Shown in pieces: positions 1-17,885 of a stretch of DNA of 17,885 nt (position 1 is the first letter of the stretch; every line of letters starts with the position of its first letter). Under the pieces are notes generated by a model. It saw only the letters and a program-made list of their open reading frames with translations. It was not told the DNA's origin and searched no databases. The DNA is from a virus (taxonomy: Duplodnaviria > Heunggongvirae > Uroviricota > Caudoviricetes). A program made the position numbers and the translations under genes. The stretch lies in IMG/VR virus record IMGVR_UViG_2671180349_000004. One strand, 5' to 3'.

Positions 1-2740
<2,740 letters not shown>

Positions 2741-2762
2741 AGCGCGCATAAAACAGGCAAAA

Positions 2763-2782
2763 ACGGGATTTCAGAATCCCGT
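2763..2782. promoter_or_regulatory. 20-bp palindrome ACGGGATT-tcag-AATCCCGT (copy 2), 35 bp upstream of the parM-like start
   Basis: Same 8-bp arms as copy 1. Overlaps the expected -35 region of the parM-like promoter (AT-rich TAATTAAT block at 2789-2797 as a possible -10), consistent with an autoregulatory operator. Confidence 0.4.
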
Positions 2783-2816
2783 AAACGATTAATTAATCAA
2801 CATAAGGAAAAGCGAC

Positions 2817-3776
2817 ATGAAAATTTGTATCGATGACGGCTCCACCAACATCAAGCTGGCATGGACTGAGAACGGCGAACGCCGCAACGCCATCAGCCCG
2901 AACAGCTTCAAGTCGGAATGGTCTGCGCCGTTCGGTGGCACGCAGCCCGCGAACTACATGCTTGATGGCGTGCGCTATGGTTTTGATCCGGTCAGCGATC
3001 GCTTTGTCCAGACGACCGACACGCAATACCAGTACAGCGATGTGAATGTCATTGCCATTCATCACGCGCTGGTCAAATCAGGCATCACACCACAGGAAGT
3101 GGATGTGGTTGTCACCCTGCCACTGAGCGAATATTTCGACACAAACGCACAGCCGGACATGGCCAACATCAACCGCAAAAAAGCAAACGTCATGCGCCCG
3201 GTGGCGTACCAGAACGGAAAAGCATTCACTATCCGTAACGTACGGGTTATGCCTGAATCCATTCCGGCTGGTTTTAAAGCACTGGCTGACATGAGTCCGT
3301 TTGAATCCCTGCTGATTGTGGATTTAGGCGGAACCACGCTGGATGTGGCAAAGGTTCAGGGACAACTGGCAGGTATCAGCCAGGTGTTTTGCGATCCACA
3401 CGTAGGCGTTTCCCTGATGGCCGATGCCGTACTGTCGGTGATGGCCACTAACGGTATGCGCACCAGTCACCACATCGCCAATACCATTATCGAACATCGC
3501 CATGATGAAGCCTGGCTGCGCCAGCACATCCACAATGACGCGCATTACGCCAGCCTGATGGCGGTTATTCGTGAAAAGGAAGAAACACTGAAACAACGCG
3601 TGATCCGCGCGCTGGCGGTTTTTTCGGGTTACGGGCGGGTGATGGTTGTCGGTGGCGGGGCGGAGATTGTGGCACCCGCTATCCGCGAAGCCTGCGGAGT
3701 TAATGCGACTTTCATCGCGGACGGAGTGCCACAATTTGCTCTGGTTAATGGGCTGTACGCAATGAACAAGGAGTAA
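2817..3776 (+). CDS. parM: ParM/StbA-family actin-fold ATPase (type II partition cytomotive protein)
   Basis: 319 aa; RBS AAGGAAAA at 2804-2811. N-terminus MKICIDDGSTNIKLAW and blocks YSDVNVIAIHHAL, KKANVMRPV, VRVMPESIPAG, LLIVDLGGTTLDV, VGVSLM, RVMVVGGGAE, LVNGLY align with plasmid R1 ParM (MLVFIDDGSTNIKLQW..., recalled from memory). Actin-fold phosphate-1 (DDGST), phosphate-2 (DLGGTT) and adenosine (VGGGA) motifs are intact. Confidence 0.9.
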   Translation: MKICIDDGSTNIKLAWTENGERRNAISPNSFKSEWSAPFGGTQPANYMLDGVRYGFDPVSDRFVQTTDTQYQYSDVNVIAIHHALVKSGITPQEVDVVVTLPLSEYFDTNAQPDMANINRKKANVMRPVAYQNGKAFTIRNVRVMPESIPAGFKALADMSPFESLLIVDLGGTTLDVAKVQGQLAGISQVFCDPHVGVSLMADAVLSVMATNGMRTSHHIANTIIEHRHDEAWLRQHIHNDAHYASLMAVIREKEETLKQRVIRALAVFSGYGRVMVVGGGAEIVAPAIREACGVNATFIADGVPQFALVNGLYAMNKE

Positions 3777-3780
3777 ACCA

Positions 3781-4092
3781 ATGACGACACCAACCAGAAG
3801 AATAAGTTTCTATCTGAAGCCAGCTGCCGTCAAGAACGAAGGAGAAGCATGCGCCTGGCTGGACAGCCTTACACCAGAAGCCCGCAAAAGCGGCCAACGC
3901 GTGGCTTTTCTGGCCGGGCTGGCACTTCTGAAGACGAATCCGGCAGAGGCTTACCGACTGGCCGCATGGGCTGATGATGAGATGTTACCTGTGACACAAA
4001 TCAGCTCAAAAAAGTTTGAAGCACAGTCTGCACCAGTGGCTAAGATAACCAGCCAGATGGCTGGGAATATCCGGGCGTTATTTCCTGAGTAA
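3781..4092 (+). CDS. parR: ParR/StbB-like partition adaptor (probable ribbon-helix-helix DNA-binding protein)
   Basis: 103 aa, starts 5 nt after the parM stop, with RBS AAGGAG at 3768-3773. ISFYLKP...LDSLTPEARKSGQRVAFLAGLAL resembles R1 ParR IAFKLNP...LDSIPQGERSRLNRAALTAGLAL (recalled). Size and position immediately downstream of parM fit a parMR operon. Confidence 0.75.
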   Translation: MTTPTRRISFYLKPAAVKNEGEACAWLDSLTPEARKSGQRVAFLAGLALLKTNPAEAYRLAAWADDEMLPVTQISSKKFEAQSAPVAKITSQMAGNIRALFPE

Positions 4093-4107
4093 AAGCATCT
4101 GCGCGAA

Positions 4108-4149
4108 AAATGCTCACGTTTATAGAGAAAATGCTCACGTTTATAGAGA
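4108..4149. repeat. Perfect tandem duplication of a 21-bp unit AAATGCTCACGTTTATAGAGA (2 copies)
   Basis: Read directly: 4108-4128 is identical to 4129-4149. Begins 16 bp after the parR stop. Confidence 0.95.
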
Positions 4150-4241
4150 CAGTATCATTCCATTTGGCACACTTACTTCAATAATCGATCTGTTAAACAA
4201 ATAGATTGTCTATTATCTATCGATTAAAACGATCAATTATC

Positions 4242-4269
4242 TTGACAGTAATGTGCCTTTTTGTAAGAT
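4242..4269 (+). promoter_or_regulatory. Candidate sigma70 promoter: -35 TTGACA (4242-4247), 16-bp spacer, -10 TAAGAT (4264-4269) preceded by TG
   Basis: Perfect -35 hexamer and a 4/6 match at -10, in an AT-rich block. The palindrome AATAGA-ttg-TCTATT at 4200-4214 lies about 30 bp upstream as a possible operator. Predicted transcription start near 4276-4278. Confidence 0.45.
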
Positions 4270-4276
4270 CGTTCGC

Positions 4277-4460
4277 ATTGTGAGCGACAAGATAATTGCG
4301 CGGCATTGTCCATGCAAAACGCCCCAATAGCAGCAACTATTGGTGCGTAAAACTCGGTCGGACTCACTTAACCTGATATGCGTGCCTTCCGAAGTAAATC
4401 AAAATGTGCGTCGTATATTTTATTGCTTACACGCACCTCTGTAAAGGCACGCATATTTTT
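4277..4460 (+). ncRNA. Candidate structured 5' leader or small RNA (about 185 nt) ending in a terminator-like stem plus U-tract
   Basis: Hairpin CCAATAG-cagcaa-CTATTGG at 4324-4343. A 13-bp perfect inverted repeat ATATGCGTGCCTT (4376-4388) / AAGGCACGCATAT (4444-4456) encloses a 55-nt segment with an inner GTGCGT/ACGCAC pairing (4406-4411 / 4431-4436) and is followed by TTTT (4457-4460). The RBS and start of the downstream ORF follow within 20 nt. Confidence 0.3.
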
Positions 4461-4477
4461 CCTATGAGGTAAATAAA

Positions 4478-4747
4478 GTGCGGGCTAAAACAGGTATTTG
4501 CAAGAACCCTCATCGTTATAATCCAACATTTCTGTCTCTCCCTGAATATCAAGGACAAGAAGGTCGGCACAAATGCGCTGCCTGTGCTTTTGAGCTAGGC
4601 ATAAAAGATGCGCTTGAAGGACGCGCTATGGCTCAGAATGATTTAGTTTTAGCTAACATTCCGTTTAGCCAGGCTGGAACTGTAAGGCACAGAGATGCCT
4701 ATGAAGCATATGTTCGTGGTTGGCGATTAATACACAGCAACAATTGA
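4478..4747 (+). CDS. Hypothetical small protein (89 aa), possible Cys/His metal-binding motif
   Basis: GTG start at 4478 with RBS GAGGT at 4466-4470. C8-x3-H12 ... H31-x-C33-x2-C36 arrangement. Followed 10 nt downstream by a strong intrinsic terminator. No family recognised from memory. Confidence 0.5.
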   Translation: MRAKTGICKNPHRYNPTFLSLPEYQGQEGRHKCAACAFELGIKDALEGRAMAQNDLVLANIPFSQAGTVRHRDAYEAYVRGWRLIHSNN

Positions 4748-4756
4748 TACTTTTGA

Positions 4757-4779
4757 AGCGCCGATAAGGCGCTTTTTTT
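4757..4779 (+). terminator. Rho-independent terminator: stem AGCGCC / GGCGCT, loop GATAA, then seven T
   Basis: Read directly: 4757-4762 pairs with 4768-4773, followed by a T-run to 4779. Lies 10 nt after the stop of the 89-aa ORF. Confidence 0.75.
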
Positions 4780-5061
4780 GTTTGCACGATAGTGCACAAG
4801 TTTGCACAATTTTTTTGAACGACTTTTTGTACTTCCGGCCCGCGTGGTGGCTGGATCCGTCAAGGATCCGTACGTGCACAAAAAAACGCGTTTTTTCTGC
4901 GCGCAGGTGACGGGGGAACAGCCCGCGTTTCAGGGGGTAAATAGCATTCCCTGAACGATGTCGCAGAGATACAACAGAATGGCCGTATTTCTCACGCTGA
5001 GCGTGAAAAATACGTGAGGGATTCTGGTTTGATGGGGTGAAAGGTAAGGCCGTCAAAATCG

Positions 5062-5080
5062 CACTGAGGCGGCGAGAACA
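5062..5080. other. Candidate cos (cohesive-end) core, G-rich: GCACTGAGGCGGCGAGAACA
   Basis: In P2-family genomes cos lies just beyond the 3' end of Q. The block GAGGCGGCGAGAACA (5066-5080) matches 12 of 15 positions of the P2 cohesive-end core GAGGCGGGGAAAGCA as I recall it. A second weaker candidate GGTGACGGGGGAACAGCCC sits at 4906-4924. Not verifiable here. Confidence 0.3.
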
Positions 5081-5183
5081 TGCAGTCAGCGCAGTGGGAT
5101 TGCGTAAGAATCTGACCGTCGATGATGGCAATAAGCAGGAAAGCGTCGTGAAATTATCTGACTGATACAGGAGCTGGAGAGTC

Positions 5184-5206
5184 GGGGCATAAATTTTTTA
5201 TGCCCC
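5184..5206. repeat. Hairpin-forming palindrome GGGGCATAAA-ttt-TTTATGCCCC, 28 bp beyond the Q stop
   Basis: Read directly: 10-bp perfect arms with a 3-nt centre. No U-tract follows on either strand, so not a canonical intrinsic terminator. Confidence 0.6.
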
Positions 5207-5233
5207 GGCGAAGCAGCAGACAAGCGAAGCGCG

Positions 5234-6280
5234 TCAGGATGTGGGCTGGGTATCTAACAGTGCGTAAGGGTTAAAGCGGATCACCTCTTCGCCAAGCCAG
5301 TCATTGATGTGCTTCATGGCCTCCATGACGGGCATCAGCTCGTTAATTGCGTAAACCCGCGCGGCCTTCTCCACATCACCAAACGCACTTTTTTCGCCCG
5401 GCATCGCCCCCATCAGTTGCGGCGGAACGCGGTGCGCAGCCAGCACATCATCACGGGATGCCGCCTTAACATTCATGAACTCATCCTTTGCGGTGATCTG
5501 CTGGAACGGCAAAATTTGCACCCCCTCTTTGCCCCCGTTGGGCGCATGAATGAGCACGTTTTTAAACGCACCACCACCACGTGCCCCCTGTAGCGTTTCT
5601 TTCAGGGAGTCCATGCTTTCGCGGTTTACCTGCGCTGCACCGATGTAGATGATGCACCCGGCGTGGGATCCGTTGTCGTAATACAGTTTTCTGAACATGT
5701 CCGCCGAATGAGACAGGCTGGCCGAGAGTAATGCGCCAAGATATTCCGGCATGCCGTAAATTTCCTGGTTAATGTCCGGATTCATCAGGTGGCACACTTT
5801 GCCAGGGCGAAACTGAAACGCGTCCTTGCCATCCTGCACATACCACCATGATTCAAGATCGCTTCCGCGTCGCACGTATTTCGCCAGTGCGTGCCGTAAT
5901 TTAAGTGGTTCGCCGAGCATATTACTCCGAAGCTCAAGGAATGCGTTACCGAACACAAACCAGTCCAGCGCCAGCGCCGAGAAATCCTGCCGGGAAAGCA
6001 GCGGGTGCGGGATGTAGCAACCGAGCAATACATTGCGCTTAAAGTAAAGCGCAGACTGATGCCAGGACGTTTGCCGGGCGGCTCTTGCCAGACCGTACCA
6101 GTCCACCGGGGTTTCATACCACCGCCCGTTATCAGCACAGTACATATTGTCCAGCAGGTCATGCCCGGTCAGGCGATAAGGACCATCAAATGTGAATGCA
6201 CTGAGCGATGATTCTTTCCTGAGCGCATCAGCGAGATCAATGCGTGAACTCATGCGCACTTTTTTATTTTTTCTGCTCAT
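5234..6280 (-). CDS. Q: Portal (capsid portal vertex) protein gpQ
   Basis: 348 aa, size as P2 Q (about 344 aa). Its start codon overlaps the stop of upstream P (ATGA at 6278-6282, minus strand). Position between cos and P matches P2 synteny. Family assigned by size, synteny and general resemblance. Confidence 0.85.
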   Translation of the reverse strand: MSRKNKKVRMSSRIDLADALRKESSLSAFTFDGPYRLTGHDLLDNMYCADNGRWYETPVDWYGLARAARQTSWHQSALYFKRNVLLGCYIPHPLLSRQDFSALALDWFVFGNAFLELRSNMLGEPLKLRHALAKYVRRGSDLESWWYVQDGKDAFQFRPGKVCHLMNPDINQEIYGMPEYLGALLSASLSHSADMFRKLYYDNGSHAGCIIYIGAAQVNRESMDSLKETLQGARGGGAFKNVLIHAPNGGKEGVQILPFQQITAKDEFMNVKAASRDDVLAAHRVPPQLMGAMPGEKSAFGDVEKAARVYAINELMPVMEAMKHINDWLGEEVIRFNPYALLDTQPTS

Positions 6281-8031
6281 CAGAACTCCATAACCGTGAA
6301 ACGCTCGTTTTCTCCTTCGCCGCCAATTGGTTCGTTAATGACAGCAAGCATGGTTGCCCACGCAAGGTCGCCGTGGCTGATCCCCCTCGCGCGGTCCGTT
6401 TCGTAAGTGATAAAGCCGCCCGGTGTTTTCACCTTACGCACGGCGTTAAAGGCCGCGACCAGCTCGCGTTCGGCGCGATCGTATTCCCACCGTCCGGCAC
6501 GCATTATTTGCAGCATTTTCAGTACCAGCGACCGTTTGGATGACAGCGTGAAGGTGTACGGAATAGCAGCAGGGAAAAACCGCTTCACTATCTGATAAAC
6601 AGCCTCCCCGTTCCCGCCCGTCACATCAATGCCGATGTGTTCCACGTTGTAGCGACACGTGAACTCTTCAATGACTCTGGCCTGTTCTTCAAACTCCAGC
6701 CCCTGAACGCGTCGCGTCTCCACCGTTCGAAAACGGCCACCAGGAACAGCCGGAGGAACCACCACGGACACAGCGCCGCTGTCGCCGTTGCCACTGCTGC
6801 CGTTTGCGTCATACCCAATCCATACCGGACGATTCCCCATCGGGCGGGGAGCAAAAGGTTTCCAGTCTTTCCAGTCGTCGTATCCGTCAACACCGCAGCC
6901 AATCAGGATATTCAGGTTAAATGCCGATTCCCCTTCGCGGACAAACTCACACTTATAGAGATTGAGGAACTCGTCTTCGGTGTTTTCATCACGAATTTCG
7001 TCGATATCGGTGTGTTTCCAGCCGTGATTAACCACATCTTCCAGCGTGACAATTTGCCGCCACGTCCGGTCAGGGCAGATAAGCCCGTTATGCAGCGTTT
7101 TCCAGTCAACAGAAAAACGCTGGCGTTTATGCGTGGCCTTTTTCTCGTTCCAGCGGTCGCCGTTCCAGTAGGCGTATGCCTCGTGCGTTTCGGTGGATGG
7201 CGTGGAGAAGTAGGTGCGCCGCAGTCCGCTGAGGGTTGCCATAGCGCCAGCCACCTTGCGCAGTTCAGCAAAGCGACTGACCCAGAAAAATTCATCAAAA
7301 TAAAAATTGCCCGTGTAGGACTGTGCCGTCGCAGCAGAAGTACCAAGAAAATGCAGCTCTGCGCCGTTGGAGAGGATGATTTTATCGCCCCCTTTCAGCT
7401 CCACATCAACTTCAGATGCAGCCTTCTGAATAATGCTTTTAAACTGGAACGCCTGACGACGCGACGCAGACAAAAAAATCTGGTTACGCTGGTAAGGTTG
7501 CGCCACATCGTCACGCAGCGCCATCAGCAGTGCTTCCTGTGCAAAATACCATGTCGCTCCAATCTGTCGGGATTTCAGGATCATCCTGTTACGTATCCCG
7601 GCTTCCCTGCAAAGGGTCAGAGAGTCAAACCAGCCCCGCTGATGCCACTCCAGCCTGCTGATGATTTTTTCCCGCAGTGCGGCAATCTGTTCCGGCGTGA
7701 AATGATTTTTGAGTTTTTTCGCCCGGCTTTTCTTTCCTGTGGCCGTCGCATCCGGCTGGCCATCATGCAGTTTTTTAAGCTGCCGAGTCAGCAGGTCTAT
7801 TTCCTTGAAGTCACCACCTGTTTTATTCTGTTTTTCAGTAAGCTGGATGAGGCGCGCATCGATGGACTGCGTGACACGCTGCACGGGTGGTGTTTCATCC
7901 CACTGGTCGCGTTTTTTCCACGCATAAATCGTGTTCGGGTTTATTCCCATCAGACGTGATATTTCTGCGGGCGGATAACCCTGCCAGTAAAGTTGCCGCG
8001 CACGCTGGCGCACAAAAGCGTCCTGAATCAT
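6280..8031 (-). CDS. P: Terminase large (ATPase) subunit gpP
   Basis: 583 aa (P2 P is about 590 aa). Transcribed divergently from O, as in P2. Start ATG at 8029-8031 (complement) with a G-rich RBS upstream. Confidence 0.85.
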   Translation of the reverse strand: MIQDAFVRQRARQLYWQGYPPAEISRLMGINPNTIYAWKKRDQWDETPPVQRVTQSIDARLIQLTEKQNKTGGDFKEIDLLTRQLKKLHDGQPDATATGKKSRAKKLKNHFTPEQIAALREKIISRLEWHQRGWFDSLTLCREAGIRNRMILKSRQIGATWYFAQEALLMALRDDVAQPYQRNQIFLSASRRQAFQFKSIIQKAASEVDVELKGGDKIILSNGAELHFLGTSAATAQSYTGNFYFDEFFWVSRFAELRKVAGAMATLSGLRRTYFSTPSTETHEAYAYWNGDRWNEKKATHKRQRFSVDWKTLHNGLICPDRTWRQIVTLEDVVNHGWKHTDIDEIRDENTEDEFLNLYKCEFVREGESAFNLNILIGCGVDGYDDWKDWKPFAPRPMGNRPVWIGYDANGSSGNGDSGAVSVVVPPAVPGGRFRTVETRRVQGLEFEEQARVIEEFTCRYNVEHIGIDVTGGNGEAVYQIVKRFFPAAIPYTFTLSSKRSLVLKMLQIMRAGRWEYDRAERELVAAFNAVRKVKTPGGFITYETDRARGISHGDLAWATMLAVINEPIGGEGENERFTVMEF

Positions 8032-16443: not shown

Positions 16444-17885
16444 ATGAGTACCACAACACGAAAATTTAAAACCGTTATCACCGATACGGGTGAAAAAAAA
16501 TTAGCGCAGGCAGCCACACCAGATGGTAAACCGGTCCGCCTGACTCACATGGCCGTGGGTGACGGCGGCGGCACGTTGCCCTCGCCAGACAGTAAGCAGA
16601 CCCGTCTTGTGCATGAGGTGTGGCGACACACTGTTAATCGCGTCATCCTGGACGCAACACATCAGAACCGCATTATTGCAGAGCTGGTTATTCCTCCTGA
16701 AACGGGCGGATTCTGGATCCGGGAAATTGGTGTATTTGATGAGCACGGCGATTTAATCGCGGTGGGCAATACTGCCGAAAGTTACAAACCAACCGTTGCC
16801 GAAGGGTCCGGACGTGCACAAACATTTCGCACCATTCTGACCGTATCCAGCACGGCCACCGTGGCGCTTACCGTGGATAACACCATGGTGATGGCCACAG
16901 TGGATTACGTGGATGACAAACTGAAAGAGCATGAACAGTCACGACGTCACCCGGACGCCTCGCTGACTGCAAAAGGCTTTGTTCAACTCAGTAGCGCCAC
17001 CAACAGCACGTCTGAAGCACTGGCCGCAACGCCGAAAGCGGTCAAGGCAGCCTATGACCTTGCTAACGGGAAATATACCGCACAGGACGCCACTACAGCG
17101 CGGAAAGGACTTGTCCAGCTCAGTAGCGCCACCAACAGCGATTCAGAAACGCTGGCGGCAACACCAATGGCGGTAAAGGCAGCATATGACCTTGCTAACG
17201 GGAAATATACTGCGCAGGATGCCACCACAGCGCGGAAAGGCCTTGTCCAGCTCAGTAGCGCCACCAACAGCACGTCTGAAACGCTGGCGGCAACGCCAAA
17301 GTCGGTAAAGGCAGCCTATGACCTTGCTAACGGGAAATATACCGCTCAGGACGCTACGACAGCACAAAAAGGAATTGTCCAGCTAAGCAGCGCGACTAAC
17401 AGCGCATCTGAAACGCTTGCTGCGACACCGAAAGCAGTGAAAGCAGCTAATGACAATGCGAATGGTCGGGTACCTTCTGCCCGTAAGGTGAATGGTAAGG
17501 CGCTTTCAGCGGATATAACACTGACACCGAAAGATATTGGTACGCTTAACTCAACAACAATGTCATTCAGAGGTGGTGCTGGTTGGTTCAAATTAGCAAC
17601 GGTAACCATGCCACAGGCGAGTTCTGTTGTTTCAATTACGTTGATTGGTGGCGCTGGATATAACGTCGGTTCACCTCAACAGGCAGGTATATCTGAAATT
17701 GTTTTGCGTGCAGGTAATGGTAATCCGAAGGGGATTACTGGTGCTTTATGGCAGCGCACATCGGCAGGGTTTACAAATTTTGCCTGGGTCAATACATCTG
17801 GTGATACTTACGATATTTACGTTGCAATCGGAAATTATGCGACTGGTGTAAATATTCAATGGGATTATACCAGTAATGCCAGCGT
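16444..17885 (+). CDS. H: Tail fibre protein gpH, 5' partial (runs off the window end)
   Basis: ATG 16444, 3 nt after the I stop. The frame is open to the window end (480 codons, translated by hand). Contains 44-aa tandem repeats of the phage tail-fibre repeat type (QLSSATNS...ETLAATPKAVK...AYDLANGKYTAQDATTA). Not in the ORF track because no stop lies within the window. Confidence 0.85.
   Translation, partial: MSTTTRKFKTVITDTGEKKLAQAATPDGKPVRLTHMAVGDGGGTLPSPDSKQTRLVHEVWRHTVNRVILDATHQNRIIAELVIPPETGGFWIREIGVFDEHGDLIAVGNTAESYKPTVAEGSGRAQTFRTILTVSSTATVALTVDNTMVMATVDYVDDKLKEHEQSRRHPDASLTAKGFVQLSSATNSTSEALAATPKAVKAAYDLANGKYTAQDATTARKGLVQLSSATNSDSETLAATPMAVKAAYDLANGKYTAQDATTARKGLVQLSSATNSTSETLAATPKSVKAAYDLANGKYTAQDATTAQKGIVQLSSATNSASETLAATPKAVKAANDNANGRVPSARKVNGKALSADITLTPKDIGTLNSTTMSFRGGAGWFKLATVTMPQASSVVSITLIGGAGYNVGSPQQAGISEIVLRAGNGNPKGITGALWQRTSAGFTNFAWVNTSGDTYDIYVAIGNYATGVNIQWDYTSNAS
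16972..17460 (+). repeat. Tandem 132-nt (44-codon) repeats inside tail fibre H: three full copies (16972-17367) and a diverged partial fourth
   Basis: Read directly: unit starts at 16972, 17104, 17236 and 17368 (AAAGG...GTCCAGCTCAGTAGCGCCACCAACAGC...). These repeats create the spurious antisense ORFs at 17052-17609. Confidence 0.9.

Follow-up and report, generated by a model that had tools for sequence, protein, structure and literature searches.

Immediately downstream of a parR-like partition gene, in the 17,885-nt stretch of viral DNA analysed here (hereafter the window), a 21-nt sequence occurs twice, head to tail. The question raised by this locus is whether the repeat is a site with a function, such as a second centromere or an operator, or a recent mutation. 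Tandem Repeats Finder reported a period of 21, 2.0 copies, 100% matches and no indels at 4107-4149, and a direct-repeat search of the window found 100% identity between 4107-4127 and 4128-4148, which confirms the perfect 21-bp tandem duplication downstream of parR recorded in the preliminary description. The copies are exact and adjacent with no spacer between them (2.05 copies), and the first begins 15 nt past the parR stop codon (TAA, 4090-4092). The repeated tract is 43 nt long (2 x 21 + 1), which gives two equivalent registers for the copy boundaries. When the whole window was searched with up to three mismatches allowed, AAATGCTCACGTTTATAGAGA matched 4108-4128 and 4129-4149 only, and it had matches in none of 200 dinucleotide-preserving shuffles. 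At the junction of the duplication there is 1 nt (A) of microhomology beside an A5 run.

Among phage records, Xuanwuvirus (P88-like) Peduoviridae come closest, and the window is a P88-like (Xuanwuvirus, P2-family) prophage. The term "island" in the preliminary description is thus replaced, as the setting is neither a genomic island nor a plasmid. Genes are ordered gpA, parM, parR, a short cargo cassette and then portal and terminase (Table 1). The parR-like gene seen upstream of the repeat in the preliminary description was borne out by its Pfam match and by phrog_2515, annotated as "partition protein". The homologous gpA CDS in E. coli 2014C-3075 measures 2,841 nt, by which the gpA start would fall approximately 100 nt before window position 1.

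Table 1. Features of the prophage region surrounding the 21-nt tandem repeat, in window coordinates
Feature	Position	Strand	Matches or sequence	Remarks
gpA replication endonuclease ORF	68-2740		PF05840 (E=1e-128)	Cut by left window end
Candidate parC/ParR-binding region	2674..2788	.	Two 42-nt direct repeats, 2674-2715 and 2747-2788	Repeats 81% identical
parM, actin-like segregation ATPase (319 aa)	2817..3776	+	PF06406 (E=7e-82); PF21523 (E=6e-69); phrog_691	ParM annotation in relatives
ParR-like adaptor gene (103 aa)	3781..4092	+	Pfam PF10784 Plasmid_stab_B (E=1e-23); phrog_2515	
Variable cargo cassette of gpA-gpQ hotspot	4093..4767	+		Right end approximate; ~654 bp in relatives; 21-nt unit at left edge
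Copy 1 of 21-nt unit	4107..4127	.	AAAATGCTCACGTTTATAGAG	Extra copy; appears as 21-nt insertion in alignments with relatives
Copy 2 of unit and shared terminal A	4128..4149	.		Counterpart of the single ancestral copy in all relatives
24-aa mini-ORF that the duplication created or lengthened	4110..4184	+	MLTFIEKMLTFIETVSFHLAHLLQ	No Shine-Dalgarno
Sigma-70-like cargo promoter	4242..4269	+	TTGACA-16-TAAGAT, 10/12 matches	Within perfect 11-nt inverted repeat 4234-4244/4288-4298
Cargo ORF, hypothetical protein (89 aa)	4478..4747	+	phrog_3941; RefSeq WP_001390707.1	Terminator-like hairpin at 4755-4775
Portal gene	5234-6280	-		Within prophage
Large terminase gene	6280-8031	-		Within prophage

P2-like phages have a published variable hotspot, the cos-proximal stretch from gpA to gpQ, and roughly one in four of these phages carries a putative plasmid partitioning system there (Rousset et al. 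2022, PMC9122126). In the window the order is gpA, parMR, cargo, gpQ, gpP. The 21-nt repeat is located within such a hotspot. The present case differs in that the cargo is a single 89-aa ORF matching no known defence families, and in that the repeat is a private mutation of the cargo and not a feature of the hotspot.

Phages that share the partition genes and carry other cargo delimit the two modules. The parMR genes are 95-97% identical in P88, Shae_phiSM and vB_EcoM-705R2, each of which has a different cargo. P88 and Citrobacter phage Shae_phiSM show ~96-97% DNA identity to window 101-4092, where homology ends with the final nucleotide of the parR stop, followed by unrelated DNA; the break in vB_EcoM-705R2 comes earlier, at 3977. 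Since the homology stops at 4092 and resumes at 4764-4768, the cargo cassette is placed from 4093 to ~4767 with the 21-nt unit at its left edge. The unit was not found in P88, Shae_phiSM or vB_EcoM-705R2 when up to five mismatches were allowed, and because these phages have near-identical parMR and other cargo, the unit is assigned to the cargo, with which it travels, rather than to the partition module. The boundary between parMR and exchangeable cargo in P88-like phages thus falls exactly at the parR stop codon, which helps to delimit the cassettes of the P2 hotspot.

Of 5,426 complete E. coli genomes, 166 encode the cargo ORF itself, in every case beside parR. Sequence searches of Pfam, PADLOC, NCBIfam and PDB gave no match to the 89-aa ORF, leaving phrog_3941 only, and a literature search for WP_001390707.1 returned no paper. 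Homologues are encoded in Providencia (61% aa identity) and in Bacteroidales MAGs (~40%), and both the Providencia-type and the Bacteroidales homologues were without the unit, the mini-ORF discussed below and any DNA similarity in the leader. By eye, the 89-aa ORF shows what may be a C-x3-H ... C-x2-C metal-binding motif.

The preliminary description had proposed a comparison with otherwise identical elements, in which the repeat might be absent or vary in number as iterons do. This comparison was made, and every relative examined has one copy, which bears out the sequence half of the refuting condition stated there (no repeat in islands that are otherwise identical). The closest relative, E. 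coli 2014C-3075, is 98.1% identical over 7.5 kb, and the duplication is the sole true indel in that alignment. Together with phages 520873 and 503458, it carries one copy, the clean 21-nt alignment gap being the only notable difference. A 231-nt query spanning the repeat retrieved the same cassette from 166 of the 5,426 complete E. coli genomes; all 60 matches sampled evenly down the ranking of these genomes are exactly 210 nt long against the 231 nt of the query, and 15 of the 60 records are 100% identical across the aligned 210 nt, yet single copy. Eight loci that were fetched contain exactly one copy each. In IMG/VR, 32 other contigs encoding the same cargo ORF also have exactly one copy, with an unchanged distance to the ORF.

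Searches for the copy-to-copy junction, queried as the 38-mer GCTCACGTTTATAGAGAAAATGCTCACGTTTATAGAGA, gave the same picture. It had no match in the 5,426 complete E. coli genomes, 86 of which gave an ungapped match to a 52-nt single-copy form used as a control. Neither the 185,579 species-representative genomes nor the metagenome contigs contained the junction pattern. Its only match in IMG/VR was IMGVR_UViG_2711768071_000013, which is the source record itself, since it is 100% identical to window 74-7132. The two-copy form is therefore private to the source record, and approximately 200 related prophages are single-copy. Copy number does not vary among the related elements, and the repeat is neither iteron-like nor VNTR-like because the number in relatives is constant; the iteron behaviour considered earlier is not seen, as there is always one copy outside the source record. 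Elsewhere in IMG/VR, the unit occurs in 11 contigs outside the cassette with unrelated flanks, which fits chance for 15 specified bases.

The source lineage also carries five private substitutions over 4,656 nt, and the duplication is accordingly one private mutation among a handful. Private mutations do not cluster significantly in the cargo leader (1 substitution and the indel in 364 nt vs 5 substitutions in 4,656 nt).

That the duplication exists, that the relatives have one copy and that the unit goes with the cargo instead of parMR is observed directly. We consider it most probable, at roughly 86%, that the repeat is a recent lineage-private 21-bp tandem duplication of the slippage type, lying in non-coding DNA and most likely neutral. 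The copies are exact and adjacent, and close relatives with identical flanks have a single copy. The ancestral single-copy sequence is part of the cargo cassette, and most likely it was doubled once, by replication slippage or a misaligned template, in the lineage leading to the source strain, with the 1-nt microhomology beside the A5 run at the junction. As only 1 nt of microhomology is present, classical slippage between direct repeats is a candidate route and not an established one. The duplication is probably selectively neutral, because it is absent elsewhere, because the unit shows no extra constraint and because of where it lies. The doubled sequence may nevertheless alter expression of the neighbouring cargo gene.

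Spontaneous short tandem duplications in bacterial and phage non-coding DNA have the same properties: exact spacerless copies, a single copy in near-identical relatives, occurrence in one lineage only and short microhomology beside a homopolymer run. Nothing substantive separates the present repeat from them, the microhomology here being only 1 nt. The slipped-strand duplication at the cargo boundary, which was one of the options in the preliminary description, is the one that the evidence supports, every relative examined having a single copy. Of the two explanations offered there for the exact identity of the copies, recent duplication stands and selection finds no sign of constraint in its favour. 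The feature is of a known kind, an ordinary private tandem-duplication polymorphism, and matters little in itself.

A regulatory reading appears very improbable. On this view a regulator of the cargo promoter would use the unit as an operator or activator site, and doubling it would alter regulation. The promoter at 4242 in the preliminary description was recovered as a promoter-like TTGACA-16-TAAGAT at 4242-4269, so that a good sigma-70-like promoter lies downstream of the unit, and a 21-bp insert would preserve helical phase, being two helical turns. However, the end of the unit (4149) is separated from the -35 hexamer (4242) by 93 nt, and the repeat neither overlaps nor abuts the promoter core. 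In its ancestral form the unit lacks both dyad symmetry and a second half-site; self-complementary words in the unit reach 4 nt only, short of the symmetry of an operator, and no sub-word of at least 7 nt recurs in 2600-4800 on either strand. The unit is also absent from the homologous cassettes of the Providencia type, and the perfect 11-nt inverted repeat around the promoter is a better operator candidate.

Conservation was assessed across 40 relatives representing 9 haplotypes, in which a 364-nt spacer separates parR from the cargo ORF. Two of 13 polymorphic spacer sites fall in the 22-nt unit vs 0.8 expected, so there is no extra constraint on the unit, and its conservation does not rise above the background of the surrounding spacer. 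The repressor operator for the downstream promoter put forward in the preliminary description is thus not supported, given the distance, the lack of dyad symmetry or a sub-motif and the lack of excess conservation. Viewed at the level of the letters, there is no sign of a protein-binding site in either the single or the doubled copy. When 4085-4185 was folded as RNA from either strand, in the one-copy and the two-copy form, only weak structures and no terminator resulted, and as neither these folds nor a terminator scan yield one in the region, the unit is not the parMR terminator. A search of the whole window against Rfam (E<=1) returned two chance-level eukaryotic matches only, neither near the repeat.

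There is likewise only a small chance that the ancestral 21 nt are functional, as the start of a mini-ORF or as a factor-binding site, and that the duplication is adaptive, retuning the 89-aa cargo gene and a candidate antisense RNA in its leader.

An error of assembly or sequencing in the one source record is a very unlikely origin of the duplication. The two-copy form does occur in the source contig only, with no independent record, but the 42-nt tract is far below read length, assemblers rarely invent exact short tandem duplications, and no second true indel occurs anywhere in the 7.5 kb aligned with the closest relative.

The preliminary description had suggested that the repeat is a second candidate parC-like site, that is, a downstream centromere of iterated ParR-binding units. 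Exact direct repeats 15 nt past the parR stop codon do invite this reading, and in some partition loci centromere sites flank the operon on both sides, parC1 and parC2 of pB171 par2 providing the precedent. We nonetheless regard it as highly unlikely. In type II systems, parC is an array of many copies that lies upstream of parM (PMC5016525); R1 has 10 iterated units and pSK41 a continuous array. The present repeat shares with them the presence of direct repeats near a parMR operon, with a ParR of the R1 StbB/ParR Pfam family. It differs in lying downstream, 3' of the parR stop codon, and not upstream of parM where the site would overlap or flank the par promoter, and in comprising two copies in one genome, this window, and a single copy elsewhere, including the ~200 relatives. 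Nor is it inherited together with parMR, as P88, Shae_phiSM and 705R2 have the same parMR without the unit, and two of the 22 positions in the unit vary among relatives. No motif is common to the unit and the conserved palindromic repeats 5' of parM; in a comparison with 2640-2816 the longest common word was 6 nt, which is also the most frequent value among shuffled units. With the unit absent beside the same parMR and nothing beyond chance in common with the upstream repeats, the proposal of a second parC-like site is not supported.

Those upstream repeats are a more plausible partition site. The gpA stop codon falls between the two 42-nt direct repeats, which lie just 5' of parM and are kept together with parMR in P88; no further copy of the 42-nt repeat was found in the window. 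Each holds a 20-bp palindrome, ACGGGATT-N4-AATCCCGT, at 2690-2709 and 2763-2782. A comparable arrangement is known from the ParMR-like system of SXT/R391, srpMRC, where direct and inverted repeats 5' of the M gene are bound by the R protein (PMC4489591). Both are ParMR-type systems on normally chromosome-integrated elements with centromere-like direct and inverted repeats 5' of the M gene, as at 2674-2788 here. SXT/R391 are integrative conjugative elements, another element type with an unrelated R protein, and the likeness bears on the upstream palindromes and not on the 21-nt duplication. Because type II centromeres lie upstream of parM and the SXT/R391 repeats also lie upstream of M, we infer that 2674-2788 is a likelier parC or ParR operator than the downstream unit. 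A false lead is thereby removed, in that the repeat is highly unlikely to be a second centromere and the partition site of the prophage ParMR is more probably formed by the palindrome-bearing repeats 5' of parM.

The least credible reading is that the unit forms the 5' end of a translated mini-ORF of 17 codons, MLTFIETVSFHLAHLLQ, which the in-frame duplication turned into a 24-aa variant: although an ATG lies inside the unit, the 21-bp insert is in frame and four of five internal polymorphisms are synonymous with the fifth V>I (P=0.045, uncorrected and for this frame alone), this value is not significant after correction for six frames, diversity is too low for the test, no Shine-Dalgarno precedes the ATG, and the mini-ORF is not found in Providencia-type cassettes and is annotated in none of the records examined. 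The ancestral 17 codons start at the second ATG (4131) and stay intact after the duplication. Judged by its sequence, the mini-ORF at 4110..4184 is probably not a gene, and the private slippage-type duplication in non-coding DNA is preferred.

Several further elements were seen in the cargo leader downstream of the repeat. The perfect 11-nt inverted repeat CAATTATCTTG / CAAGATAATTG at 4234-4298 overlaps the -35 hexamer of the cargo promoter with its left arm; the DNA before it (4180-4240) is AT-rich and includes several near-repeats that contain GATC. GATC clusters are also present at the promoter of the Providencia-type homologous cassettes. It is possible that this inverted repeat and GATC region acts as an operator or as a Dam-sensitive control.

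A perfect 13-nt inverted repeat, ATATGCGTGCCTT / AAGGCACGCATAT, is located at 4376-4456 with its arms 55 nt apart, just 5' of the ribosome-binding site of the 89-aa ORF. In the Providencia-type homologues another inverted repeat, of 11 nt, CAGGGTTTACA / TGTAAAGCCCTG, occupies this place. The occurrence of inverted repeats before the cargo ORF in both cassette types suggests a conserved leader structure.

The leader also contains a candidate cis-antisense RNA of ~95 nt on the minus strand (window 4316-4445; L001 4596-4725). A promoter-like TTTACA-17-TAAAAT (4445..4417) reads toward an 11-bp G+C-rich hairpin followed by UUUU, and the candidate folds with z=-4.2 in relatives, with no match in Rfam. 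Position 4344 is one of the private substitutions, with T here vs G in 40 of 40 relatives; the T breaks one G-C pair of the 11-bp antisense hairpin at a cost of ~7 kcal/mol.

Other tandem duplications occur in the window. In the portal gene, an in-frame 6-nt tandem duplication (CCAGCG-CCAGCG, 5965-5976) is present relative to phage 520873 and is also found in E. coli 2014C-3075. A tandem array with a 132-nt period, 3.7 copies and 83% identity (44-aa repeats) extends over 16972-17454, in what would, from its position, be the tail-fibre region of the prophage.
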